From Candidatus Omnitrophota bacterium (lineage in GTDB: Bacteria; Omnitrophota; Gorgyraeia; Zapsychrales; Zapsychraceae), in assembly GCA_029261055.1 (NCBI GenBank), contig JAJDCA010000037.1, forward strand, positions 82,818-146,817: 64,000 nucleotides of DNA, given 5' to 3'. Numbering within the stretch: the first letter of the stretch is position 1; every line of letters begins with the position of its first letter. Positions 31,923 to 56,513 of this stretch are shown piece by piece. Position numbers and translations under genes: made by a program. Under the pieces are notes generated by a model that did no database searches, was not told the DNA's origin, and was given only the letters and a program-made list of their open reading frames with translations.

Positions 31923-33356
31923 TTATTTTAAAGAGTTAAGAAATTCTGCAAAGTCCTTTATGAACATTTTTGGAATATATGTATCATATGAATCTACAGA
32001 TTCAATATTATTTTCGGAGTCTCGATTTATATGAAGTAACATATAAAAGCTCCTGCCCTCTTCCTCATCCTCCATTATGACCTCGATGGTCTCCCTACTG
32101 CCAATCTTTTCAACTTCCTTTATTTTTGCCTTCATTCCTAGAAATGTTCCGTCTGATGAGCATATTGAATTAATCTCGCTAGGCAATTTGTCATGCATAC
32201 TTTGAATATCTTTATCATCAAAGCTTGCTTCGATTTTTACAATCTTTCCTTCGATTTCTTCAAAACTTGCTTTGCAGGTAAGTTTTTCTACATCTGTCTG
32301 ATCTTTTGCTGCCGATGTGTTTAGACATTTTAATTCTAGATGTAAGGTAGATGCTGACTCACTATCTTCTGATGATTCGGATAATTTAACATCATTAAAC
32401 TTCTCTTCTGTGTCTTCATTATCTTCTACAGGAGTTAGTTCAATTTGCTTGCTCTTATTTGATTTGAGTTTTTTACCTATCTGACTAAGTGCGCTCAGCA
32501 ACATTTTTCCAATGTCTGAACTACGTTCATCAGAGTCTTTTTCTTCATTTGATTGTACTTTTACTTTGTCATCATCATCTGAAGCATCTTTCTTGTATTT
32601 CTTATTATCCGTTTCGGACTCTGATTTATTTTCATCTGTTGCTTTTGGTTTAGTATCTACAACTTTGCCCAAATCTACAGTTTCAGAAGATTCTGAGGTT
32701 TCTAGCTTATTGTTTATTGATTTTCCACTTGGAAATGTCGGAAATATCTGACCACGAATTTCACCTAATGGGTATTCCGCAGAATGAATATTTACCAACA
32801 GTTGTCCTTCCATCAGCATTTTAGCCTGATCATCAGTAAGGGAAACCGAACCCTCTTTTATTCTACCAATTGGTAGTGGAACAACTATCTCTGCCTCGTC
32901 TGTTCTAGTACCACTCATGCCCTTATGGAGATGTGCAGCAGTTTCAACAGTTGATAGCTCATTGTGCTCAATAGTGTAAAATAATTCATTAGATATGGAA
33001 TTGAACATAAATCTAGCAGACCCATTGGCTGGACCAAATATTGGCGGCTTTTCCTGAATGGTGCTCATGCTGGCACTAAAGAACATGAGACTGTTTTCTA
33101 TTCTAATTTTGTCAAACAAAGATGTTGCTTCTGCCTTCTCTAATGAGCCAGCTATGGCATATACGTGGTCCATTAAATGCGATTTGGCAGATTCTATTTG
33201 CTCTTTTGGCAAATCATCTACTAACTTTAAACAGAGTGCCAGTCTATCAATATCAACTGTTGCGTGTGCATTTCCGTCTTTTACATCAGGTGTGTGATGT
33301 AGTAGTAGGCGATTATCTGTAGCAAAAGCCTTTTCCGGTAGCTTATTACGATCCAT
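31923..33356 (-). CDS. CHRD-domain protein with an acidic Ser/Asp/Glu-rich linker (477 aa), in the head module
   Basis: Strong CHRD signature: GSARFMFNSISNELFYTIEHNEL...AAHLHKG..G ... LLVNIHSAEYPLGEIRGQIFP. The consensus is aHiH.G ... NvHt..P.GeiRGQi. Confidence 0.6.
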   Translation of the reverse strand: MDRNKLPEKAFATDNRLLLHHTPDVKDGNAHATVDIDRLALCLKLVDDLPKEQIESAKSHLMDHVYAIAGSLEKAEATSLFDKIRIENSLMFFSASMSTIQEKPPIFGPANGSARFMFNSISNELFYTIEHNELSTVETAAHLHKGMSGTRTDEAEIVVPLPIGRIKEGSVSLTDDQAKMLMEGQLLVNIHSAEYPLGEIRGQIFPTFPSGKSINNKLETSESSETVDLGKVVDTKPKATDENKSESETDNKKYKKDASDDDDKVKVQSNEEKDSDERSSDIGKMLLSALSQIGKKLKSNKSKQIELTPVEDNEDTEEKFNDVKLSESSEDSESASTLHLELKCLNTSAAKDQTDVEKLTCKASFEEIEGKIVKIEASFDDKDIQSMHDKLPSEINSICSSDGTFLGMKAKIKEVEKIGSRETIEVIMEDEEEGRSFYMLLHINRDSENNIESVDSYDTYIPKMFIKDFAEFLNSLK

Positions 33357-36014: not shown

Positions 36015-39000
36015 TTATGTGAATTCATCAGACCATCCACCAATTGAGTTGTCGTCCTCGTATCTCTCTCTCAGGATCGCGTCTTTGTCATAATTTATCT
36101 CATCTAATCTCATGGCCATATAGTTAGCTAATAGAAATGAGGAATATCTATCTTTGTGCTTTACACCCTCTTCTTTTCTCTCGTCAGGTGGCTTTAAATC
36201 GAATGACTTCTTGCCTGTTTTAGTGTAGACTATTGTGATAGACGACAATTCTTTCTTTAATTCCGATACTTCAAACAGTATATCCTCTGCCTCGTCATCT
36301 AGGGCGCTAGTACTTGTGGTTACTGGAAACATGGTAAGCCTATCTTCAATATTTTTTTGAAGCAGGGTGTTTGACTCATCCAGCCACGCTGAGCCGAAAT
36401 TCTGTAAATTTAGTATTCGTAGCCCTTCTTTTGCCTCTTCGCTGTCGTCATCAAAATGATAAAACTTAGGTTCGTCTGGTTTACGAATTTCAAGACCATC
36501 ATCAGTTTTTTCCATATTTAACATTTCTTCTACAGCGTGGCCACCACCACCCGCATCCATGTTTATTCCAACAATGTTGAATCTTCTCCACAACTCTCTC
36601 ATGTGTGCTGCACATTCTGAATATTTTCTTTTTTGAGCAGTCCATTGATACACTAACTTGTGCGGTGTTCCGACCTCTATTATGGTGACAGCAAACCTAT
36701 CTAGCATTTTAGCTGGATCTACACCCATTACATACTGTCTCTTTGGCTTACCTCGCTTTAACACGGAAAAACCATTGGGCGGAGATGCTGTTGCTTCGCG
36801 TATCTGCTTGGCTTTATAGAATCCTGTACTGTCGTCTCCAAATAGCGTGTTGTACTCCATGTCGAACAATTGTTTTGGCATCTGTGACCTACTGGATTCA
36901 ATCACATCTTTTTCCATCATGCCATCTGGTATTGCCTCCCAGGGATAGCGCACGATACAGTAGTTATTGCAGTCAACCTCGTAGCCTTCGCGCTTTTCAC
37001 TTTCGTCAAATACATCACCGTGTTCGTCCACCGCACCCTTTACATTGTGTTTTATTATCTTCTGATAATGTGCGTAAACATGATGAAACGTCTCTCCTGT
37101 ATATCCTGCGGTTCCGGCCAATATAATTTTATTACCAGAATTGATATCTGACATAGCTAAATCTTCTGGCTCATTACCAATTGTACGAGCTTTTACCTTC
37201 TCCCAGGGGTCTAATTGTGTTGCAGCGAATCCACGCACTACTACATCAAATATTTCAATTGGAATTGAGTTGAACTCATCTGCCAGTATCACATGTCCAC
37301 GCTCTCCTCTAATTCTAGTATTGTGACTAAAGAATCCGTTTGCACAATACTCATGTCCATTTGGTACATGAATATCATATGTATGACCTTGACCATCGTG
37401 CTCTATGTCTGAAACTTTATCATAGAATATATTTGTATCATATAGATTTTCAATATCTTTAACTGTAGAATGATTAGTACCACCATGAACCCTTAAGAAT
37501 GTATTCGCCATCTTCCATGAAATATTTGATTTGTTTTTTAAATATCCATACGAACAATCTCTACTATTGTAGGAGCCTCTTGGTGCTCTAAACTCCTTGG
37601 AAAAACTTTTCACTTTGTCAATCATGTCTGGAAGATAATCGGAATGATTAACAAATCTTTTCTTATTTGCAATAATATTGTCTAGCCCATCTACTTTGCG
37701 AGATAAACGAAACCCTATTTTTTCATGAAATATTTTAAGATTGGCACCTCTTATTGTCAATTGATAACAAGTGTTCCATTTTTCACTACGATCACGTTTA
37801 TATACTGTTGCTACTATGCCGTAATGAAGCAGTATATATTGCAGTTGTTGAATTAGAATTTTGCTGGTATTATTAAACTCTACACATGTAGATCCTTCTC
37901 CAACATCAACAACACCTCCGTCTGAGTCCATTAGTCCTTTTATAAATTCTGTAACAACATGTCTTTCTGCACACATTATACTTTCTGGTATTCGTTTATC
38001 TTTTGTGCTAACATGTTTGTAAGATACTCCAAACTTAGACATAAAATTACTTTTGACAGACTTTCCATATGCATTGTAGTGACACCCATCTGTCGCAGGA
38101 ACAAAATTCCCAATTACACAAACAGCTTCAGCCAACTCCTGATCTTTTGTGGCAAATCCAATATTGTATTTGTCTTTAATACTGCCATCACCTATTATTA
38201 GTCCTAATGCATATGATTCATCTGGTGTAATGCTATTTGCCCCCTTGTGCCAGCGAATAGATCTGTCTATCAATACATGATCTGATTCAGTTATTTCATC
38301 AAATCTTGACCATATGATGTCTCCATCTCTAACAATTTTAACTTTGTGATTTTTTGTGCCACTAATTTCAAATCCACGAGAAGTACGAATTTTGATAATA
38401 TCTGTATAGCGATTATAATAAGACTCATTCGTTGACCTCATTTCCCCATTGCCCCAGACAGTTCTATTCCTATGAACTATGTTTTCGTTTTGGTCAACGT
38501 CTTCTGGTTGATCGTCTGATATGGTTCCAAATCTATCTCCATAAGTCACCATAGTGTCTGGACTTACACAGCCATCTCCCATTGGCAATGCTGTGACACT
38601 TGATCCACATATTTCTAGCTTCCAGCTATCCTGATTATGTACCGGCTCTCTCTCCATCATTTGACTCAACAATGGAGATTTTTTAATCATTTTTTCCATC
38701 TCATTGAAGACCAGCTTGGATTGTCTGAAGCTAGCTGAGACTAATATTATCCTTGAATATGGAAACATGATAGCATGATACAATGAATATGTAGCTAAGC
38801 TAAATGTCTTTCCGGCACCCCTTGACAATAATAGCAATGGAAACTTGTGTCTCAGCATTGCTATTATCATTGACATTTGGAATGGGAATAATTTTACACC
38901 TAGTAAATACTTTATACCAAAGGCAGGAGAATAGAATGGATTGCAGAGCTTGTAAAATTCCGTAAGCTCATCTTTTTCTTTCTGGTCCTCTCTAACATCT

Positions 39001-39101
39001 AATAATGGATTTATTAGTAATCTTTTATCTGGAATATTGTTCATCCACTCATAATCTGGATGAAATACTTTTGCAATTCTAGATATCTGTTTTGAGTCCA
39101 T
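36015..39101 (-). CDS. terL: Terminase large subunit interrupted by an intein (1028-aa precursor; about 611-aa mature TerL)
   Basis: Walker A LLLSRGAGKTF lies before the intein. Walker B-like HVILADEF follows immediately after the intein. The C-terminal half is nuclease-domain sized. RBS GAGGA upstream. Confidence 0.85.
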   Translation of the reverse strand: MDSKQISRIAKVFHPDYEWMNNIPDKRLLINPLLDVREDQKEKDELTEFYKLCNPFYSPAFGIKYLLGVKLFPFQMSMIIAMLRHKFPLLLLSRGAGKTFSLATYSLYHAIMFPYSRIILVSASFRQSKLVFNEMEKMIKKSPLLSQMMEREPVHNQDSWKLEICGSSVTALPMGDGCVSPDTMVTYGDRFGTISDDQPEDVDQNENIVHRNRTVWGNGEMRSTNESYYNRYTDIIKIRTSRGFEISGTKNHKVKIVRDGDIIWSRFDEITESDHVLIDRSIRWHKGANSITPDESYALGLIIGDGSIKDKYNIGFATKDQELAEAVCVIGNFVPATDGCHYNAYGKSVKSNFMSKFGVSYKHVSTKDKRIPESIMCAERHVVTEFIKGLMDSDGGVVDVGEGSTCVEFNNTSKILIQQLQYILLHYGIVATVYKRDRSEKWNTCYQLTIRGANLKIFHEKIGFRLSRKVDGLDNIIANKKRFVNHSDYLPDMIDKVKSFSKEFRAPRGSYNSRDCSYGYLKNKSNISWKMANTFLRVHGGTNHSTVKDIENLYDTNIFYDKVSDIEHDGQGHTYDIHVPNGHEYCANGFFSHNTRIRGERGHVILADEFNSIPIEIFDVVVRGFAATQLDPWEKVKARTIGNEPEDLAMSDINSGNKIILAGTAGYTGETFHHVYAHYQKIIKHNVKGAVDEHGDVFDESEKREGYEVDCNNYCIVRYPWEAIPDGMMEKDVIESSRSQMPKQLFDMEYNTLFGDDSTGFYKAKQIREATASPPNGFSVLKRGKPKRQYVMGVDPAKMLDRFAVTIIEVGTPHKLVYQWTAQKRKYSECAAHMRELWRRFNIVGINMDAGGGGHAVEEMLNMEKTDDGLEIRKPDEPKFYHFDDDSEEAKEGLRILNLQNFGSAWLDESNTLLQKNIEDRLTMFPVTTSTSALDDEAEDILFEVSELKKELSSITIVYTKTGKKSFDLKPPDERKEEGVKHKDRYSSFLLANYMAMRLDEINYDKDAILRERYEDDNSIGGWSDEFT
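37320..38570 (-). mobile_element. Intein (417 aa) with a LAGLIDADG homing endonuclease domain, inserted in the TerL ATPase domain
   Basis: Block A CVSPDTMV follows extein ...ALPMGDG. Block B GTKNHKV. Two LAGLIDADG motifs (LGLIIGDGS and FIKGLMDSDGG). Blocks F/G HTYDIHVPNGHEYCANGFFSHN are followed by extein Thr (TRIRGERGHVILADEF). Coordinates are derived from residue positions 178-594 and are accurate to ±2 nt. Confidence 0.8.
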
Positions 39102-41549: not shown

Positions 41550-42260
41550 TTAGTATATATTGTAGCCTTGTAGTGCATCTCTTAATGCCTTTTTTAGTAT
41601 TTTTTGCTCTTCTTCTTGCAAGAGTTCAATATCGTAATTTACATCTTTTAACTTATTGAATAGTGGATGGAAGGCGGACGGAAGATTTAAGCTGATATGC
41701 TCTAATATATCTAAAGTACTTTCATGTGATCCGCTATTTTCATCTTTTAGTATAGTAGAATCTAGTGATGCTGCATTATTTGCACTCATTTTAGCCTTTA
41801 AGAACTTTTCATGAGCTTCATATTTCTCACACTTCATTTTATCCTTATATTTCATACAGTCATGATTGCCAGCCTTAGATGCCACCTTATCCCACAATGG
41901 ACAACGAAAACAGGGCTTATTATGCTTGTATACTAGTGCTCTTTTTATATCTCTAATTCTATTTTCTGCTACGACAGAGAAAAAAGTACGCAGCCTTACC
42001 CCTCGCTCTGGTTTAAACTTATCAATTGATAGCCAGAGCTTCATTCTAATCTCTTGTGCTATGTCTTCCATTGATAGGTATACTATTTTCCAGTGCTTTG
42101 CAGCCTTACTCGTTGCAACACTTTCTATTATTTCCTTTATTTCTTTCTCTGTTAATTCTGCATCTTTAGGTGTCTTCTGTTTCTTCTTCTGAGTCTTCAA
42201 TTGTGTTTTCTTCGATGATTTTTCTTTTTTCTTCTTCACTTTCCGGTGCCTCTCCGCCAA
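41550..42260 (-). CDS. Phage-encoded sigma-70-family factor (region 2 homolog) with a poly-Lys N-terminus and a Cys cluster
   Basis: DIAQEIRMKLWLSIDKFKPERGVRLRTFFSVVAENRIRDIKRA aligns with RpoD region 2.1-2.4 ([40 protein letters not shown]). N-terminus RHRKVKKKKEKSSKKTQLKTQKKKQK. Also contains CFRCPLWDK...CMKYKDKMKCEKYEAH. Confidence 0.6.
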   Translation of the reverse strand: MAERHRKVKKKKEKSSKKTQLKTQKKKQKTPKDAELTEKEIKEIIESVATSKAAKHWKIVYLSMEDIAQEIRMKLWLSIDKFKPERGVRLRTFFSVVAENRIRDIKRALVYKHNKPCFRCPLWDKVASKAGNHDCMKYKDKMKCEKYEAHEKFLKAKMSANNAASLDSTILKDENSGSHESTLDILEHISLNLPSAFHPLFNKLKDVNYDIELLQEEEQKILKKALRDALQGYNIY

Positions 42261-42934: not shown

Positions 42935-43396
42935 CTATTCCCCACTACTCCCAAAAGATCCGTCCGAACGACTGGTATTTGTTATTTTATTAACTTCGTT
43001 ATACTGTACATTTGGCAGTTCTAGTATTACTGCCTGACATACCCTGTCTCCAACTCTATAGATGTTATCTATATCTTGAGTATTTTTTTCGTAGCTACCT
43101 TTCGTAAGTCTAAATCTTACACGTACTTCACCCAAGAATCCAGAATCCACAACTCCAACCGCATTGGCTAATTGCAAGTTTTTCTTAGAGATGCTACTAC
43201 GAGGAAATAGAAACATTCCATATCCAGCAGGCACATTAAAGGCAAGACCTATTCCGTACTCTACATACTGGTCTGACACAGCTATACTCGTTGCTGTTAG
43301 GTCAAAGCCAGCATCGTGTTCGTGAGCATGAAATGGCTCTCTTGCTTTGGGATGTAATTTCTTAAAAGAAATATTTGTAACTTGTTTATTTAGCAT
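42935..43396 (-). CDS. dut: dUTP pyrophosphatase (trimeric dUTPase)
   Basis: All five dUTPase motifs are present: AGFDL, PRSSISKK, GVVDSGFLGEV, GDRVCQAV, RSDGSFGSSGE. Confidence 0.85.
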   Translation of the reverse strand: MLNKQVTNISFKKLHPKAREPFHAHEHDAGFDLTATSIAVSDQYVEYGIGLAFNVPAGYGMFLFPRSSISKKNLQLANAVGVVDSGFLGEVRVRFRLTKGSYEKNTQDIDNIYRVGDRVCQAVILELPNVQYNEVNKITNTSRSDGSFGSSGE

Positions 43397-43408: not shown

Positions 43409-45364
43409 CTATTGGATTTCACAGGCTCCACCCTGACAACTGATTTCCTTTGATCCTGTAGTATTGTCATCTATTTCAAATTTAGAGAGTTGACTATAAT
43501 CTATTTTTGGTAATTGTTTTTTCATTATGTTGTATTTTTTTTCATTTATAGATTCAAAAGGGGGCTGTTCGTAGTGTCCAGAATCAAACGGTAAAAACGA
43601 AACGCCGGTAATATATTTCCAGTTTTTATACACCCAGTTACCAACCTCCAGCCACTCGTCTTCTTTAACAAATATTGTGGCGCTAGCATTATGTTCACAC
43701 CAATGCTCCTGAATCTTTTTATAGTGTTCAAGCTGCTCAATAGCCGTCATGTCGTCTCTTAGTACAGACCCTTTGGGGGCAGCTACAGGGAACGATACAA
43801 CCCATGTATTAACCTTATCTTCCGTCCATCTCTTTCCCTTTTCATATATTATACACTTTTCTATATCACCCTTTTGTGCCATTTTCCAATCCTTCAATCG
43901 TTCTCCGTTTTCTGGTGACATCGGAAAGTTTTGATCTTTTAGCATTTGACACAGGGGATCTATAGAGGAGATTCTATAGCGCCTAATATAGAATTTAGAG
44001 AAACGACCATGTATTCCAGACGACGAGTTTACTAATTGTGAAACTGTTCCAGATGGTTTTACTGTGGTGATAGCTGTAGAGAAATTAATCCCAAGAACCT
44101 TTGATGCCTTTTTGGCGATCTTAATAGCTTTCTTTTTCATTGCTTTTAGTGCTATTGGGGTCAACATATCAATATTGTCCATCTGTCCAGTTAACGATAT
44201 TCCCAATAGCCTCTCTTCATTACAGTTTCTCTTCCACTTTTGAGATAGGTAAGAAAAATTTGTATAAGTTGATTGAAGCGCCCCTAACCATGCTGCTGTT
44301 TCTATTTTATCTAAGATATCGTCTAGGTCATCATTTGGACGAATAACAACTTCGGTCAAGTTACACATTTGGCATGATCTTAAAATTATCTCAGCACACG
44401 GATTACATCCTGCTAAAAGATTTGTTTTTCGTCTATCCGGTGATCTCTTTATTGCACCCTCTAGATTAAAAATCCCTCTTTCTCCAGTTCCGCTTTTTGC
44501 TAAAGCAGACCACTCTTCCATAAAACTAATAGCCCCAGGCTTATCCCTATATATTGTTGATATATTCGCCATCGCTCTATGTAATGGAAATGGCCAAGTC
44601 TTGGCCCCTCTAATTTCTTTGTCTGATAAGTCTGATAGAGCCAATTGAGAGCTTCTTCTAACACCCCCTACAACAACTACTTCAGCTATTTTATTTAAAA
44701 TATCCAAGCACTCAATAGATTTTAGCTGTCTGCCCTGCGCCTCAATAAAAATCATTCTAATAAAGTCGTGAAGAGTTATTAGTGGTTGTTTGCCAGAAGA
44801 CCTTCCTCCAAATGTTTTTAATCTTGCTCCCTTTGGTCTAAGTAATCCATAATCAAAGTCCATATCTTTTCCAGCATATAGTGCCTTCATAAGATATTTA
44901 ACAGAATCAGCCCATCCCTCTTTTGAATCTGGAACTATGAAGGTTCCTGCACCTTCTCCAAGCATCTTGCTGATGGTTGGTAATTTATCTACATATTTAT
45001 TTTCTACAGAAAATCCATAACCAGTTCCACACATTAGAATGTACAAACATTCAGCAAACGCCTCAATGCAGTCAATATTTTGATAGGAGCAATTATATAG
45101 TGCTGCATGAACTTTATTTCCAGCGTCTCCAGCAGCCCATAATGCCCTCATGCTGCCCATAACTGAAAAATTTAACATATAGTTTCTAGCTTTACGAAAC
45201 ACCTTTTGTGGAACACTATCACCATTGCCCTGTTCTAAAAACGTAATATATCTATCTACTGTCTCATCCCATGTTTCTCTGCGATTTTCCTCTTCTAGCC
45301 AACGCGAATAAGTCCTGGTGTACACAAATTCAGCCGCTTCATTTGCAAACTCTACTCTACTCAT
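43409..45364 (-). CDS. nrdJ: Ribonucleotide reductase, class II (adenosylcobalamin-dependent, NrdJ-like)
   Basis: Active-site loop GCNPCAEIIL (class II SNPCGEI). C-terminal redox pair CQGGACEIQ. N-terminal ETWDETVDRY. Start chosen at the Met preceded by AGGAGA (track start 45466 would overlap the upstream gene by about 90 nt). Confidence 0.7.
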   Translation of the reverse strand: MSRVEFANEAAEFVYTRTYSRWLEEENRRETWDETVDRYITFLEQGNGDSVPQKVFRKARNYMLNFSVMGSMRALWAAGDAGNKVHAALYNCSYQNIDCIEAFAECLYILMCGTGYGFSVENKYVDKLPTISKMLGEGAGTFIVPDSKEGWADSVKYLMKALYAGKDMDFDYGLLRPKGARLKTFGGRSSGKQPLITLHDFIRMIFIEAQGRQLKSIECLDILNKIAEVVVVGGVRRSSQLALSDLSDKEIRGAKTWPFPLHRAMANISTIYRDKPGAISFMEEWSALAKSGTGERGIFNLEGAIKRSPDRRKTNLLAGCNPCAEIILRSCQMCNLTEVVIRPNDDLDDILDKIETAAWLGALQSTYTNFSYLSQKWKRNCNEERLLGISLTGQMDNIDMLTPIALKAMKKKAIKIAKKASKVLGINFSTAITTVKPSGTVSQLVNSSSGIHGRFSKFYIRRYRISSIDPLCQMLKDQNFPMSPENGERLKDWKMAQKGDIEKCIIYEKGKRWTEDKVNTWVVSFPVAAPKGSVLRDDMTAIEQLEHYKKIQEHWCEHNASATIFVKEDEWLEVGNWVYKNWKYITGVSFLPFDSGHYEQPPFESINEKKYNIMKKQLPKIDYSQLSKFEIDDNTTGSKEISCQGGACEIQ

Positions 45365-45374
45365 GCTTCTCCTA

Positions 45375-46550
45375 TTAGTGCAAATTATGCTCATTGGCTT
45401 TGCGGGTGTAGAATTTACCACCGACCTCAGCAAAATCCCTAACATCTGTATAGTTGAATACAACATCTTTGGTTTCTGTGTCTACATGAATAATAATAAA
45501 CCCATTTGACCATTTTTCACCATCGCAATATGATGCATCCCTATAATGCATACCTCCCAACTGATGCCATTCATATGATCTGCGATTTACGTTATAATCA
45601 TGCCAAACTAAATGATGATGATGATGCCCATTAATTCCTGGCATTCCAGCAATATTACGACCCTGCGGTTCATGATGAACCAAAAATGCGTCATCGTATA
45701 TTTTGAAACTACGAGCAACTTGATTATTTTCGTCACCCTTATTCCATGCAGTAAGGTCAGCTTTGCCAATATAATTTATCTCAAATTTATCTAACCCCAA
45801 CATTTCTCTAACGCCCATATTATGAACTTCAGAGAGTATTGACATTGTTGCTGCATCAGCATTACACATATGCTTAACTAATCTAAGCTCGTGATTGCCT
45901 TCAATCATGTCGATCTGTGCATCACCAGCGGCTTTGCGAACTGGTTTTAGTATCTTTTCGTGAACAAATTTAATTCTGCCAGCGGCATCCCATGTGCGAG
46001 GATCTACTGGAAATCTACCAAACTCTGGCAGGTCAAATATGTCTCCGGCCAGTATCACTCCTGCTAATTGTCCAGCCTTTTTAATACGTGATATTGTATC
46101 AACAAACACTCGCAGGCAAAAGGGATCGCACTCTTTATCGTGGAAGTCTGATGCTGCAACGTATGTTTTTATTCTTCCTTTGGCTGGACGACTAAACTTG
46201 TCCGCCCAAGTTGCTCTCTCAGCATTCATTTTCCTATATATATCAGCATCTTTATGCTTGGCAATATCATTGGCTAGTTTTTTCTGCCCCCTAGTTGGGG
46301 TTATGTTTGCCGCCCTTTGAAATGCCGGAAATGTTCCAAAGTACTTCTCCCAGTGAGAGTCTTTTATCTGTGTTCTGGTTCTAAAGTATCCTCTGCTTAG
46401 CGTGGTACATCCATCATCTTGACGAAACTGCCAAAGTCCCTTTATCAATGTTATGAAATCCTGCTCTGTTAGTTTACTGGCTATTTTGTCTGGTATTTTC
46501 TTTCCAGATTTAATAGCATCATTGAAATATTCTGTTTTTGTTTTTGACAA
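45375..46550 (-). CDS. Calcineurin-like metallophosphoesterase with an N-terminal extension of about 120 aa
   Basis: Motifs ASDFHD (DxH), AGDIFD (GDxxD), EGNHE (GNHE), and histidine-rich GINGHHHHHL. Confidence 0.65.
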   Translation of the reverse strand: MSKTKTEYFNDAIKSGKKIPDKIASKLTEQDFITLIKGLWQFRQDDGCTTLSRGYFRTRTQIKDSHWEKYFGTFPAFQRAANITPTRGQKKLANDIAKHKDADIYRKMNAERATWADKFSRPAKGRIKTYVAASDFHDKECDPFCLRVFVDTISRIKKAGQLAGVILAGDIFDLPEFGRFPVDPRTWDAAGRIKFVHEKILKPVRKAAGDAQIDMIEGNHELRLVKHMCNADAATMSILSEVHNMGVREMLGLDKFEINYIGKADLTAWNKGDENNQVARSFKIYDDAFLVHHEPQGRNIAGMPGINGHHHHHLVWHDYNVNRRSYEWHQLGGMHYRDASYCDGEKWSNGFIIIHVDTETKDVVFNYTDVRDFAEVGGKFYTRKANEHNLH

Positions 46551-46558
46551 GGTTCCTC

Positions 46559-47656
46559 CTACTTTAGTCCGTGAGCACCATTTTCTCCATAGCCAAGCGG
46601 TGTCACTGGTGTAAATATAGCATTTTCATACATTTCTTTAATAGTTCCTGCGTTCAGATATGTCATGCCGGAACGTAATCCTCCAATTAGATCATCCACG
46701 ACACATTCTACTGGCCCCCTACACTCTACCAATGACAACTCACCCTCTGGTGTTCTCTTTTTCGCTATGCCGTCCCAGCCATCCATTGCTGACTGCGATG
46801 CCATGCCTTGATATTTTTTAAATCTAGGCCCTTCACTATATCCTGGACCACTGATACCGACCTCACCATCTTTAAATTGGTGCGGCCCACTAGTTACTAT
46901 TTCTCCTGGAGTTTGATCGGTTCCTGCTAATAAGCTACCCAGCATTACAGAAGAGGCACCAGCGCTTAGTGCTTTGACTATATCTGAAGAGTTCCTAACA
47001 CCACCGTCTGCTATTACAGGCACATTGTACTTTTTAGACGCAGCCGAACATTCTAGGACAGAGGAAAACTGTGGTACTCCGCAGCCAGTAACTACTCTAG
47101 TTATGCACAGTGAACCGCAACCCACTCCGACCTTTATAGCATCTGCGCCAGCTTCACACAGCCTCTTTGTCCCTTCTTCTGTGGCTACGTTTCCGGCTAT
47201 CACATCCCATTCTGGGTATGTCTTTTTTATATATGTAATGAGATCGACTACACGTTCACAATCACCATGCGCAACGTCAACGCAGACTCCAGTAGCTAAC
47301 CTATCTTTATGCTCATAGATTGCTCGCAGCGTCTCTTTATTTCCCTTGCCTAAGCCTATCGAAAAAAACCTATTCTCACAACCGTAAAGTTCTGCCTCTA
47401 AAAGATTCTTTATCATATCTTCGCATGACATAAATCTGTGCAATATGGCTGCACCACCCATTTCGTCCATAGCCACCATCATGCCACTCTCTGTAACGGT
47501 GTTCATATTTGATGCTATAATGGGAATGTTTATAGACTTGTTTTTGGTAAATTTTGTTGTCGTGGTAACGTCATCGCCATATCTAGACACTTTATCTGTA
47601 TATTGCGGCCTCAATAGGACATCATCATAGCTGAGTCCATAATCTGTGAATTTCAA
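46559..47656 (-). CDS. guaC: GMP reductase / IMPDH-family enzyme lacking a CBS domain (GuaC-like)
   Basis: Near-collinear with E. coli GuaC: IPIIASNMNTV, CVDVAHG, VIAGNVAT, GADAIKVGVGCGSLCITRVVTGCGVPQ (catalytic Cys loop), VIADGG, IGGLRSGMTY. TTG start with an AAGGTAGG RBS. Confidence 0.7.
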   Translation of the reverse strand: MKFTDYGLSYDDVLLRPQYTDKVSRYGDDVTTTTKFTKNKSINIPIIASNMNTVTESGMMVAMDEMGGAAILHRFMSCEDMIKNLLEAELYGCENRFFSIGLGKGNKETLRAIYEHKDRLATGVCVDVAHGDCERVVDLITYIKKTYPEWDVIAGNVATEEGTKRLCEAGADAIKVGVGCGSLCITRVVTGCGVPQFSSVLECSAASKKYNVPVIADGGVRNSSDIVKALSAGASSVMLGSLLAGTDQTPGEIVTSGPHQFKDGEVGISGPGYSEGPRFKKYQGMASQSAMDGWDGIAKKRTPEGELSLVECRGPVECVVDDLIGGLRSGMTYLNAGTIKEMYENAIFTPVTPLGYGENGAHGLK

Positions 47657-47716: not shown

Positions 47717-48658
47717 CTATTCTTCAATGGCTTTTCTCATCATTGTTGCCAAGTCTTGAATCTCGCGTTGCGCGTGTGAATGTTCTCGTAATCCCAAAAC
47801 CCTCTCCATTGCCTTGTTGGTGGCTGTCATGTAAACTTTACTCATCATATTCTGCGGTAGTATCATTCTTGCCATTTCTGGGGCAGTGCCATTTTCTAAC
47901 ATTGTATTATATGCTAATAAACTTCTATCAAGTGTATTTTCTAATTCATCATTATTCATGTATTGAATATCTAAATCAACTTCATCTCCGCTACCCTGCT
48001 TTATACTCTTGTCTGGTCTTTTTCTCCACACCTTGGGTTTAAAAAATTTAGGCTTGTCATCTACGTACCGTCTAGATACTTCGTTGTATGTTACTCCAAC
48101 ATTTGACCTCATCAGCTGTCGAAAGACGAATATTGGTGCCTCTATTAGTAGTGTCACACATTCCGACTCTAGCTCTTCAAAATTTAATGATTCTGTTATA
48201 TTCTTGGGTTCTCCAAATTTATTTATAATGGCATCATATGAAATTGGAGCCTTTTTACGAATACAGTTTAGCACTTGAGATGGTATTTCTGGAGGAGGAT
48301 TAGTTAGCCATCCATACAACGAATCTTCTATTATGACTGTTCCAGCACCGTATGGATCTGATTTATCGACTTCGAATACTGATCCTGGTGATGTTGATAG
48401 CCACTTTGCTAGCTGCCATGTCAAACTTACGCTAAACTTAAACCTATATCTAGCATGGGTTAATGGCGTAAAATGATTGTTATTTACTAAATATTTAATA
48501 AGTCCATCGTCTGGTCCCATGCCATTTTCGGATTTTCTAGCATCTGCTTCCGGTGTATTTGACATTACAATATTATCAACGGTTTTGTCCATCGAAACAC
48601 GAGCGGAATTAACAACCGTTAGGTCGCTATTATTATGATTAATTCTTAATACTTTCAT
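47717..48658 (-). CDS. thyX: Flavin-dependent thymidylate synthase ThyX homolog (divergent: RHR motif replaced by RSN, about 90-aa insertion)
   Basis: Blocks SARVSMDKT / LIKYLVNNNHFTPLTHARYRF / APIFVFRQLMRSNVGVTYNEVSRRYV / EMARMILPQNMMSKVYMTATNKAMERVLGLREHSHAQREIQ align with Thermotoga ThyX. Confidence 0.8.
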   Translation of the reverse strand: MKVLRINHNNSDLTVVNSARVSMDKTVDNIVMSNTPEADARKSENGMGPDDGLIKYLVNNNHFTPLTHARYRFKFSVSLTWQLAKWLSTSPGSVFEVDKSDPYGAGTVIIEDSLYGWLTNPPPEIPSQVLNCIRKKAPISYDAIINKFGEPKNITESLNFEELESECVTLLIEAPIFVFRQLMRSNVGVTYNEVSRRYVDDKPKFFKPKVWRKRPDKSIKQGSGDEVDLDIQYMNNDELENTLDRSLLAYNTMLENGTAPEMARMILPQNMMSKVYMTATNKAMERVLGLREHSHAQREIQDLATMMRKAIEE

Positions 48659-48769: not shown

Positions 48770-50668
48770 ATGAATATTAATGGAGGGTGGATAGTGACAA
48801 ATTCAATTAATTTTATTCCAGGTTCAGATGGTGAAAATATCGGTGATGGATCTGGCATATTTCAAGATGTAAACAATAATACTCTTCGTTTTAAGACAAT
48901 TGTTCCAGTAAGTGGGTTAGAGATAATAGACACTGGCACAGAGTTGGAATTTACAATACTATCTACTGTTGGGGAAGCTGGACCGTCTGGTGCTACAGGT
49001 CCACAAGGCCCAAGTGGCGTTGCGGGTCCAAGTGGAGCGACTGGTTTGACTGGTGCTACAGGTCCACAAGGCCCAAGTGGCGTTGCGGGTCCAAGTGGAG
49101 CGACTGGTCCTAGCGGCTCTCAAGGAGTCCAGGGAGAAATTGGTCCATCTGGTACAGCACATACTTTTTCAAACATTGGAGCTGGGGAAGGTGTATTTTC
49201 TAGCATTGTATCAGATGATGTTCAATTTAAAAGCATAGTTGGTAATTCGGGTATTGATGTATCTTCTGACAGTGATGAAATATTTATTGACTTTGACATA
49301 ACCGAAGTTACTGAGCTTGGGCCGACTGTATCTGGACTATACTACCGTAAAGACGAAGATGTTATTCCTGATATTGACGAGACATACACTATAGGTAATC
49401 AAACAACTAAATTCGTTACTGTTCATGCATCAACTGGCGTTTTCACTGGTGCCAATAATGAAGTTGGTAAAGTAGCAGTTGGTGATTTCGGCGGCGGACT
49501 AGAGTGTGCAATAATCGAAAGAGGTCTTCCTGGTGCATTTCCGGCTTTAGTTATGCGTGGTGGTAGAGCCGCTATTATGGAGACATCTAATCTGGGAACA
49601 ATGGTTTCTGGATTCTATATGGGTCCAACTCAAAATATAATTATGGGAGATATAGAGGATTATACATCCAAAACAGGTGGTCAATTATATAGTAGTGAGC
49701 TTAACCACTTTGACAAGAAAATAACCTCTGTCCTACATACTAAATTGGTTGACAGTTCTAGCAATAGAGTTGCTCATTATGTTTTTAATACAAATTCCGT
49801 TAATTCTAAAAATAGTAATCCTAGTATTGCTTTAGAGGCTGTGTCTCAAACAAATGTCACGAAGGCTGTTTCTAATTATATTACAGCAATAAAGGCTAGG
49901 GCCGTAGCACTAGATTCTAGTTCTTCAGTTGTTATACCAAACGGTCTTTACGCTGGTCTTGATTGTCAAGTTATTCATAGTGGTGTTGGGAGAGTAAGCA
50001 CAGCTAAAGCTGCTTATTTTGGATTAAGTGCATCATCTACCGGATCATTCGGTAACGCCTATGTTGTTCATATTGCAGCTCCATCTGGATCATTCTCTGG
50101 TGCCAACAAATCTCTGTGGTGTGAGGGCGAGGCATGTTTTACAAATAATGTAGAAATAGTTAATGACTTAAATATCGGCTCTGATATAATTGTTGTAGGA
50201 ACAGTAGAAGGCGATATTTTTCAAGTCAATGATTCCTTGACAGTAGAATCTATATCAACTTTTAATGATGATATTACCGCTACTGCTGATGCCTTTTTCG
50301 ACAATGATGCTAGTGTTAGCGGATGCTTAGAGACCAAAATAAGGCGCGATGCATCACGTAGGGAATCATTTGTTTTTGTCGACAATATTGCATTTGATCG
50401 CAATTTAATCTATGGAGATATGGCTGCTGCTGGCTCCATATTGACAGTGACAGATCCAGGTAAAAATGGACAAGAGACGAAAGTTGTATGGAAACAAAAT
50501 AACGCCGGAACAGGGTTCGTTACGTTTTCTTATTCTGGTGGTATTAAGTGGAGAGGTGGAGCAGCGCCAACGCTAACAGCGACATCTGGTGTCAGAGATA
50601 TATTTACATTTTTGTACGACTCGACTGATGATGTGCTCTATGGGCATGCTGATCAGGGCTATGCTTAA
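48770..50668 (+). CDS. Collagen-like (G-X-Y repeat) fibre protein with a large C-terminal globular domain, 632 aa
   Basis: About 48 uninterrupted G-X-Y triplets ([25 protein letters not shown]...). It is the only plus-strand gene within about 50 kb of minus-strand genes. A GTG at 48794 preceded by GGAGGG is an alternative start. Confidence 0.8.
48989..49107 (+). repeat. Perfect 56-nt direct repeat with 63-nt period (2 copies) inside the collagen-like region
   Basis: ggtgctacaggtccacaaggcccaagtggcgttgcgggtccaagtggagcgactgg occurs at 48989-49044 and again at 49052-49107. It encodes the 21-aa unit [18 protein letters not shown](L/P)(T/S)G. Confidence 0.8.
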
Positions 50669-55757: not shown

Positions 55758-55990
55758 TTTGCCTCTTTTCCGTTTAAAAAGATCACAAAAGCTATTGCCA
55801 TCATTATTGGTCCAATGAGTATGGAAATTGCGTACGCCAATATAGTAATTTTTATTTCGTCAAGATGTTCGACTTCATACTTTTTGGTATTTTTTAGTAA
55901 TTCATTCGTGGTAGTGTAGGCAACAGAGATTCCCACAAATAGCCACAATATTCCAATTATACATATAATCATTTCTTTTTCACTAAACAT
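55754..55990 (-). CDS. Small membrane protein (78 aa)
   Basis: Two TM helices. Confidence 0.3.
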   Translation of the reverse strand: MFSEKEMIICIIGILWLFVGISVAYTTTNELLKNTKKYEVEHLDEIKITILAYAISILIGPIMMAIAFVIFLNGKEAK

Positions 55991-56513
55991 CTATTATCCT
56001 CTCATCTGTACGATGCCAACCATTTACTCTTAGCTGCTCTAAAAACATTTCTACTTGTGATGGTAGCTTCATATTTTTCAAAGTAGTCTGAGCATCTTCT
56101 ATACATCGAAGCATATGCTTGTTTCCTGCGTTTAGTTCATCTAGTGCCCATAAGTAAAATTCAACCATATCTAACGAGCGCAACCAAAGTTCTTCATCTT
56201 CGGTTATGTCATACTTAATACCCAGTACATCTTCTACTTGTTTTGTAGATTCTGTCATAGCTGATTTTAATTCAGGAAACATTCTTTTAGCAGGAAATGG
56301 AGTGTCACCATTCCATCTTTCGTGAAGGTCATGTCGAATAATCGCTTGATAAAGTTTTAACGATGGGTTAGGATGAAGTACCTCAAGTAGAAGCAGCATA
56401 TCGAATGAGTGCTTACCAACTGAATAGTCTGTAGAATGACGAACCGTGTGTGCTCTTTCTACGCAACTTGCCTCTCTAAGTTGTAGCACTTTGTTTAATA
56501 TTTTTTTACCCAT
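55983..56513 (-). CDS. HD-domain phosphohydrolase, YfbR-like 5'-deoxynucleotidase
   Basis: HSFDMLLL ... IIRHDLHERWNGDTPFPAK matches the YfbR pattern (H...HD...E..TGD.PTP.K). Confidence 0.65.
   Translation of the reverse strand: MGKKILNKVLQLREASCVERAHTVRHSTDYSVGKHSFDMLLLLEVLHPNPSLKLYQAIIRHDLHERWNGDTPFPAKRMFPELKSAMTESTKQVEDVLGIKYDITEDEELWLRSLDMVEFYLWALDELNAGNKHMLRCIEDAQTTLKNMKLPSQVEMFLEQLRVNGWHRTDERIIDV

Follow-up and report, generated by a model that had tools for sequence, protein, structure and literature searches.

A probable thymidylate synthase ThyX with an RSN motif and an inserted subdomain, encoded in phage DNA from a Candidatus Omnitrophota assembly

A stretch of 64,000 nucleotides from a Candidatus Omnitrophota assembly (GenBank GCA_029261055.1, contig JAJDCA010000037.1, positions 82,818 to 146,817; hereafter the window) belongs to a phage genome and carries, at 47717..48658 on its minus strand, a gene of the thyX family. 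As judged from its residues and predicted fold, this gene probably encodes a bona fide ThyX that forms deoxythymidine monophosphate (dTMP). It would represent an under-described variant of the enzyme, which belongs to a branch recognizable by the motif SRRY, falls within the RSN subclass of that branch, and has a long architecture.

Identity of the protein and its active-site residues

The open reading frame (ORF) is intact, with an ATG start and a stop codon at 47717-47719, and codes for 313 amino acids. It matches Pfam Thy1 (PF02511; E=6e-36, 124.4 bits against a cutoff of 24.8), the NCBIfam thyX equivalog TIGR02170 (119.1 bits against a cutoff of 87.9), and the PHROG family phrog_85, thymidylate synthase (E=1.7e-45). 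A phmmer search of PDB sequences retrieved ThyX of Thermotoga maritima as the top match (2e-13), aligned over residues 167-309 together with a weak stretch at 50-73. The AlphaFold2 (AF2) model, computed from an alignment of 64 relatives, has a mean predicted local distance difference test score (pLDDT) of 93.6. Searched with this model, Foldseek found only ThyX structures in the PDB (probability 1.0), at target-normalized template modeling (TM) scores of 0.55-0.58 that are lowered because of the insertion described below. Every significant rank in the BFVD was a ThyX-family or unnamed protein, and none of the proteins in this database closely matched the whole 313-residue architecture (best TMq 0.68). 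A megablast search of the 8-kb region against phages gave no match, and there is therefore no close cultured relative. These matches bear out the block-by-block alignment with ThyX proposed in the initial annotation, apart from its last block, which had been given as ADSHAQ and in fact reads EHSHAQREIQ. On this evidence, the ORF can be assigned to ThyX with confidence.

The protein is composed of three segments. The N-terminal ThyX segment (residues 1 to 76; 48431..48658, minus strand, as for all parts of this gene) was delimited from alignments and contains SARVS (S22), the invariant H62 (H53 in T. maritima) and a first copy of a core strand, ARYRFKF, with a strand at residues 70-76 in the AF2 model. 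It is followed by an inserted folded subdomain (residues 77 to 167; 48158..48430) with the conserved motifs SL[WY]GW and AP.S..A[IL], and by the catalytic core (residues 168 to 313; 47720..48157), which corresponds to the best stretch in phmmer and Pfam (163/167 to 312). The core stops directly behind the HAQ.EIQ helix, without the C-terminal FP.SW.AL helix that ThyX proteins usually have.

The classical ThyX signature, RHRX7S (Myllykallio 2002, as quoted in PMC2826268), is absent from the protein. The query stretch QLMRSNVGVTYNEVSRRY aligns with QWFRHRIA-SYNELSGRY of T. maritima ThyX (TM0449; PDB 1KQ4 and 1O26), with which the query shares its fold and family models, so that R78, H79, and R80 correspond to R184, S185, and N186 (48101..48109). 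One extra residue stands between this triplet and the conserved serine, giving R-S-N-X8-S. The replacement of RHR by RSN, as first read from the sequence, thus holds in the alignment. The initial annotation had also envisaged that RHR might be conserved at a shifted position beside a normal ThyX active site. A shifted copy is ruled out, as RHR occurs nowhere in the protein, and the active site is otherwise normal.

Identity to T. maritima ThyX extends over H53 (H62 in the query), R74 (R180), Q75 (Q181), R78 (R184), E86 (E193), S88 (S195), R90 (R197), Y91 (Y198), R147 (R264), and R174 (R291) and, besides the catalytic set and R78, over N85 (N192), E144 (E261), H178 (H295), and Q180 (Q297). In T. 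maritima numbering, R174 activates deoxyuridine monophosphate (dUMP), and S88, R90, and Y91 assist methylene transfer (PMC8316439), while dUMP is hydrogen bonded by R78, R80, S88, and R90 (PMC3498832). A check of the dUMP ligands, as advised with the initial annotation, found all of them kept except R80, and among the stated ligands this residue alone appears to be missing, along with H79.

The substitution that may make up for this loss lies nearby. S195-R196-R197-Y198 (48065..48076) aligns with S88-G89-R90-Y91, and at position 89, where RHR enzymes have Gly or Gln, the query has Arg, giving the SRRY hallmark. In the ThyX of PBCV-1, the side chain of residue 89 (Gln) is able to occupy the dUMP phosphate pocket (PMC3498832), and R196 is a plausible stand-in for R80. 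The query further differs from T. maritima by the changes N163 to T, R165 to K, and N169 to R, the last of these (R286) being near-invariant across the subfamily.

The catalytic and dUMP-binding positions are invariant or nearly so in 64 relatives with 35 to 60% identity to the query, and about 20 active-site positions are strictly conserved across very divergent relatives. The stretch LMRSNVG[IV]VYNEVSRRYV is near-identical among proteins with approximately 40% overall identity, a degree of conservation that indicates purifying selection.

By homology to T. maritima ThyX, the enzyme would convert dUMP, methylenetetrahydrofolate (CH2-H4folate), and NADPH to dTMP by the same mechanism and from the same substrate, with reduced flavin adenine dinucleotide (FAD) relaying the methylene group. 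R291 would activate dUMP and S195, R197, and Y198 would help the transfer, while the nucleotide would be held by R180, Q181, R184, E193, and R264. The contacts lost would be those of H79 and of R80 to dUMP, presumably at the phosphate, and these are probably replaced by R196, Ser185, and possibly R286. The insertion would serve as a structural appendage that in long proteins of the RSN type (RSN-long) is paired with loss of the C-terminal helix. For the phage, the enzyme would supply dTMP for replication, together with a class II ribonucleotide reductase (RNR) and a dUTPase encoded in the same gene block.

Extent of the SRRY branch and its motifs

The change in the signature is shared by the relatives of the query. 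RHR was found in none of the 120 closest clusters at 90% identity, all of which have (R/K)-S-(N/T) or K-H-x. A HMMER search over 1.84 billion representatives at 50% identity retrieved 3633 relatives at E<=1e-3 and 97 at E<=1e-30, and the motif could be read in 135 of the best 150 of these representatives. RSN (30 proteins), KHQ (29), and KHM (24) predominate, followed by KHT and KHK (7 each), THR (5), KST (4), RHN (3), and RHR (2), with RHT, RHH, RSS, and others also represented. Only 4 of the 135 lack Arg89. In a rough neighbor-joining tree, RSN/KSx proteins cluster beside short RHN, RHH, and RHR proteins. At the level of sequence, the motif varies continuously, with RHN linking RHR to RSN in single steps, and loss of RHR is a property of the whole branch and not of the query gene alone.

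Among cultured phages, RHR is kept in the ThyX of a cyanomyovirus and of a mycobacteriophage, and K-H-x together with SRRY is found in Pseudomonas phage PA11 (gp023), Pectobacterium phage phiTE (159), Escherichia coli Kuravirus ES17, Pelagibacter phage Mosig, Rheinheimera phage Barba1A, and Pseudoalteromonas phage XG4. All compared ThyX proteins of cultured phages, of both types, are annotated as thymidylate synthase. Like the query, the KHQ/KHx proteins have lost R80, and they share with it the extra residue before the conserved serine as well as Arg at position 89 and the counterpart of R286. Unlike the query, they keep His79, have Lys at position 78, and are mostly short, with the C-terminal FP.SW.AL helix; the same insertion as in the query is nevertheless found with KHx in phage XG4 and in Alteromonas prophage-like genes. 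In the literature searched, no biochemical characterization of KHQ/KHx ThyX was found.

The branch is also found in bacterial chromosomes. A scan for the peptide NE[VI]SRRYVD in one genome for each of 185,579 species gave 86 stretches, and KHQ thyX genes occur in ordinary chromosomal neighborhoods, conserved between species, in SAR202, Spirochaetia, Poribacteria, and Nitrospinota. The neighbors are 2-oxoacid dehydrogenase E1b/E2 and an MFS transporter in SAR202, dihydroorotate dehydrogenase in Spirochaetia, and IspH and MlaA in Nitrospinota; in Poribacteria, the flanking genes are conserved in two species. These settings are good, if indirect, evidence that KHQ-type ThyX is functional. As RHRX7S is absent from the 120 closest clusters and from the chromosomal ThyX of these four lineages, it covers only part of the ThyX family and is unreliable as a criterion of membership. 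Genuine ThyX genes are lost when motifs of this kind serve as a filter, as in PMC2826268.

Both the enzymology of ThyX and the design of inhibitors are based on RHR-bearing enzymes, namely those of T. maritima, Mycobacterium tuberculosis, PBCV-1, and Helicobacter pylori, and reviews list R78, R80, S88, and R90 as conserved dUMP ligands. The SRRY branch departs from this rule and is sizeable, with 30 RSN proteins among the best 150 clusters at 50% identity and with KHQ relatives that are housekeeping genes of marine bacteria. In this branch, R80 and even H79 appear to be dispensable, and the branch offers a natural test of which dUMP contacts matter. No description of a non-RHR ThyX branch or of the insertion was found in the literature searched, and an earlier description may still exist. 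In three larger relatives, P0175 (524 amino acids), P0215 (538 amino acids), and P0205 (576 amino acids), the ThyX core matches only the C-terminal ~140 residues; these may be fusions or intein-containing forms.

Position, distribution, and possible origin of the insertion

The initial annotation had described an insertion of about 90 residues that is absent from compact ThyX proteins, and this is what the comparison with relatives gives. Residues ~77 to 167, approximately 91 residues placed after the second core strand of T. maritima ThyX, are missing from relatives of 210 to 250 amino acids. The insertion site is flanked on one side by the strand after H-x-T-P-x-x-H and on the other by the strand before APIFV.RQ. 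The AF2 model predicts that the inserted part, which carries no catalytic residues, folds well (pLDDT mostly above 90). A Pfam scan of the insertion alone gave no match at E<=10.

The insertions of RSN-long and KHx-long proteins share the insertion point and the motifs SL[WY]GW and (A/Y)P.S..A[LI], which indicates that they are homologous. Short proteins with RSN occur, as do KHx and RHR proteins with the insertion, and long and short proteins are interleaved within every motif class of the rough tree. The motif change and the insertion are therefore not tied to each other.

Profile comparison aligned the insertion with the C-terminal third of short ThyX proteins. In this alignment, the APEMAR helix of short ThyX corresponds to xEDxAGMV, the TGSL strand to SLWGW, and the C-terminal helix FP.SW.AL to YP.S.KAL. 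The score of 31-33 (P ~1e-4) exceeds those of 60 column shuffles (12-14 ± 2.7, maximum 23) and of reversed profiles (9-13). The signal comes mostly from the KHx-long set and is weak for RSN-long proteins alone (20.0 against a shuffle maximum of 19.7). In addition, phmmer aligned both ARYRF and CVTLLIE with the same strand of T. maritima ThyX, which the duplicated strand would explain. The C-terminal FP.SW.AL helix is missing in RSN-long proteins, the query included, and is kept in KHx-long and in all short proteins. Together, the profile matches suggest that the insertion is a degenerate partial copy of the α/β core of ThyX itself, and duplication followed by loss of one copy would be the simplest reading of the insertion and the absent C-terminal helix. 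The insertion would then illustrate clearly how a domain insertion may arise through decay of an internal duplication.

Long ThyX proteins of 307 to 309 amino acids were also found in eight metagenome-assembled genomes of Aquificaceae (L065, L067, L068, L074, L078, L081, L083, and L085), which tblastn aligned over query residues 4 to 311. Like the query, they have an insertion (~110 residues) at exactly the same point, the SRRY motif, and no C-terminal helix, but unlike the query they keep RHR intact, lack the extra residue, and are encoded in a chromosomal housekeeping context. In two genera, the thyX gene is flanked by a Sir2 deacetylase gene on one side and, on the other, by genes for ribosomal proteins L27/L21 (rpmA/rplU), AhpC, and a carboxylase subunit. 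Homology between the sequences of the Aquificaceae and phage insertions was considered and not retained, as the profile comparison was not significant (P=0.076; reversed control, 0.15), and the likeness seems limited to position, size, and C-terminal truncation. Because the Aquificaceae gene has RHR and a housekeeping context, an insertion at this site is compatible with the thymidylate synthase of a cell.

Gene context and the question of substrate

The thyX gene is the first of a block of co-directional minus-strand genes. Directly downstream lies a gene of the IMPDH/GMP-reductase family (46559..47656, minus strand; 365 amino acids, no CBS domains; Pfam IMPDH E=6.7e-95), whose product falls far under all NCBIfam equivalog cutoffs for IMPDH or GMP reductase and matches PHROG 9582, labeled "dehydrogenase." Between this gene and the RNR gene, a metallophosphoesterase of 391 amino acids is encoded (45375-46550, minus strand; phrog_20266, E=1.3e-77), which has no Pfam match at E<=0.1; its ORF as listed overlaps the start of the RNR ORF by ~90 nucleotides. 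Next come the class II (B12-dependent) RNR (43409..45466, minus strand; Pfam RNR_Alpha, Ribonuc_red_lgC, and RNR-II_ins_dom) and a dUTPase, the supplier of dUMP (42935..43396, minus strand; Pfam dUTPase E=4.9e-14). The guaC-like, nrdJ, and dut genes that had been named as neighbors of thyX are thereby confirmed. RNR, dUTPase, and ThyX constitute a standard dTMP supply line, and thyX in this phage would be ordinary nucleotide-supply equipment.

Approximately 7 kb from thyX, the window also encodes a YfbR-like 5'-deoxynucleotidase with an HD domain (55983-56513, minus strand; 176 amino acids; PF12917, E=1.5e-8). In a phage with dUTPase, ThyX, and RNR, such a deoxynucleoside monophosphate (dNMP) nucleotidase could edit the nucleotide pool, and it is the only feature that can be read, weakly, in favor of such editing. 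General scans covered most ORFs at ~24-64 kb of the window, 8.6 kb beyond its right end (small unannotated ORFs and RusA), and the gene tables of three relatives' contigs; for modification genes, the scan did not extend to the structural genes at 1-23 kb, to several short ORFs within 50.7-64 kb, or to the ~80 kb that make up the rest of the genome. Among the ORFs scanned, neither a second thymidylate synthase nor, by Pfam and PHROG, a 5-hydroxymethyldeoxyuridine (5-hmdU) kinase, an aGPT-Pplase, a glycosyltransferase, or another hypermodification gene was found. In phages, 5-hmdU hypermodification proceeds through a dUMP hydroxymethylase, a 5-hmdU DNA kinase, aGPT-Pplase, and further enzymes (PMC8989533).

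The initial annotation had proposed that the substrate or the chemistry of the enzyme may differ, a proposal that finds no support here. In its fuller form, the RSN-type enzyme would feed a phage DNA modification pathway, either by releasing 5-hydroxymethyl-dUMP upon capture of water by the exocyclic methylene intermediate or by acting on uridine monophosphate (UMP), dCMP, or another pyrimidine nucleotide. The change of the classical ligand triplet at two of three positions, the phage-like contexts of the Ser-79 subclass wherever neighbors were checked, and the nearby YfbR-like nucleotidase, as such enzymes could help to exclude the canonical nucleotide, speak for this option. The fold also has precedents. 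PolB of Streptomyces cacaoi (PDB 4P5A), a UMP/dUMP C5-methylase, is a ThyX relative that has additional loops and a shifted substrate preference and that matches the query core in phmmer (E=1.9e-12), although, compared by overall similarity, its additions lie at other positions than that of the query, and it presumably keeps RHR. The ThyX-family protein gp130 of Bacillus phage SP-15 has been hypothesized to be a hydroxymethyluridylate synthase (PMC5977210), but it is only remotely related to the query (weak Foldseek match, E=0.016), and the SP-15 genome encodes a second ThyX along with a cluster of modification genes, neither of which was seen around the query. The residues in which a change of base specificity or reduction would be expected (R174, R90, S88, Y91, R147, Q75, and E86) are unchanged, and the residues for dUMP activation and methylene transfer do not vary between the query and its relatives. 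Moreover, RHN and RHR proteins stand beside the RSN cluster in the rough tree and the motif varies gradually, RHR is lost across the clade, several bacterial lineages carry KHQ genes as ordinary chromosomal genes, an insertion is found at the same position in RHR-bearing chromosomal ThyX of Aquificaceae, and none of the partners in base hypermodification named above was seen in the ORFs scanned around thyX or in the contigs of three relatives. An altered chemistry is thus unlikely, and it is quite improbable that the phage-restricted Ser-79 branch as a whole (RSN/KSN/KST) consists of flavin-dependent enzymes that modify C5 of pyrimidines, such as a 5-hydroxymethyl-dUMP synthase; the dUTPase is compatible with both this and dTMP synthesis. 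If true, this would be the first enzyme of ThyX fold to feed a DNA base replacement pathway, possibly with the YfbR-like nucleotidase, and a new route to modified phage DNA.

A difference in the handling of flavin or reductant, such as weaker binding, the use of flavin mononucleotide (FMN), or another reductant partner, would leave dTMP as the product and is a refinement of dTMP synthesis and not a true alternative to it. The changes H79 to S, R80 to N, N163 to T, R165 to K, and N169 to R point in this direction, as does the near-invariance of R286; in T. maritima ThyX, N163, R165, and N169 contact the ADP moiety of FAD, an assignment that reportedly goes back to the 2003 structure paper. R78 and H53 are kept, however, and such a difference is unlikely. 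That the protein is a catalytically dead relic of ThyX, or has a purely regulatory or structural role, might be read from the loss of two signature residues and of the C-terminal helix and from an insertion devoid of catalytic residues. This is very improbable, as an intact ORF sited with dUTPase and RNR genes and the strict conservation of ~20 active-site positions argue against it, the latter being strong enough to reject a pseudo-enzyme.

Several observations nevertheless weigh against a dTMP-forming ThyX. R80, which is listed as a direct dUMP ligand (PMC3498832), is replaced by N186, and H79 by S185. Four relatives (P0190, P0193, P0196, and P0282), long ThyX proteins with KHM/KHI/THK and S-G-R-Y, have neither R80 nor R89, which weakens strict compensation between the two arginines, and the compensation idea is therefore not general. 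Ser-79 variants (RSN, RST, and KSQ) lie in phage-like contexts in all three of the genome-set contigs scanned, beside DUF927/VapE primase, phage lysozyme, and PolA genes, with a dUTPase gene directly upstream of the RST-type relative, and the three metagenomic relatives examined are likewise in phage genomes. The housekeeping argument is therefore direct for KHQ only and reaches RSN by extension. The YfbR-like gene lies near thyX, and the DNA examined amounts to ~73 kb of a genome of ~155 kb. Finally, the literature searched yielded no assay or structure of a member of the non-RHR branch, and the solved ThyX chains whose motif region was aligned (T. maritima and 6J61) all have RHR.

The block headed by thyX continues with a sigma-70 region-2 protein just downstream of the nucleotide metabolism genes (41550-42260, minus strand; PF04542, phrog_1740), an ERCC4 nuclease, and a large terminase (Terminase_6N; 36015-39101, minus strand) that contains an intein with a LAGLIDADG homing endonuclease (Intein_splicing, LAGLIDADG_3, and Hom_end). 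On the other side, divergent from thyX, a collagen-like protein of 632 amino acids with G-x-y repeats is encoded (48770-50668, plus strand; PF01391). This is the sole large plus-strand gene in a long minus-strand region, and the sign of the GC skew flips at 48-50 kb. A protein with a CHRD domain (31923-33356, minus strand; PF07452, E=2.6e-19) is encoded among the structural genes of the capsid/portal region; this domain is unusual in a phage structural module.

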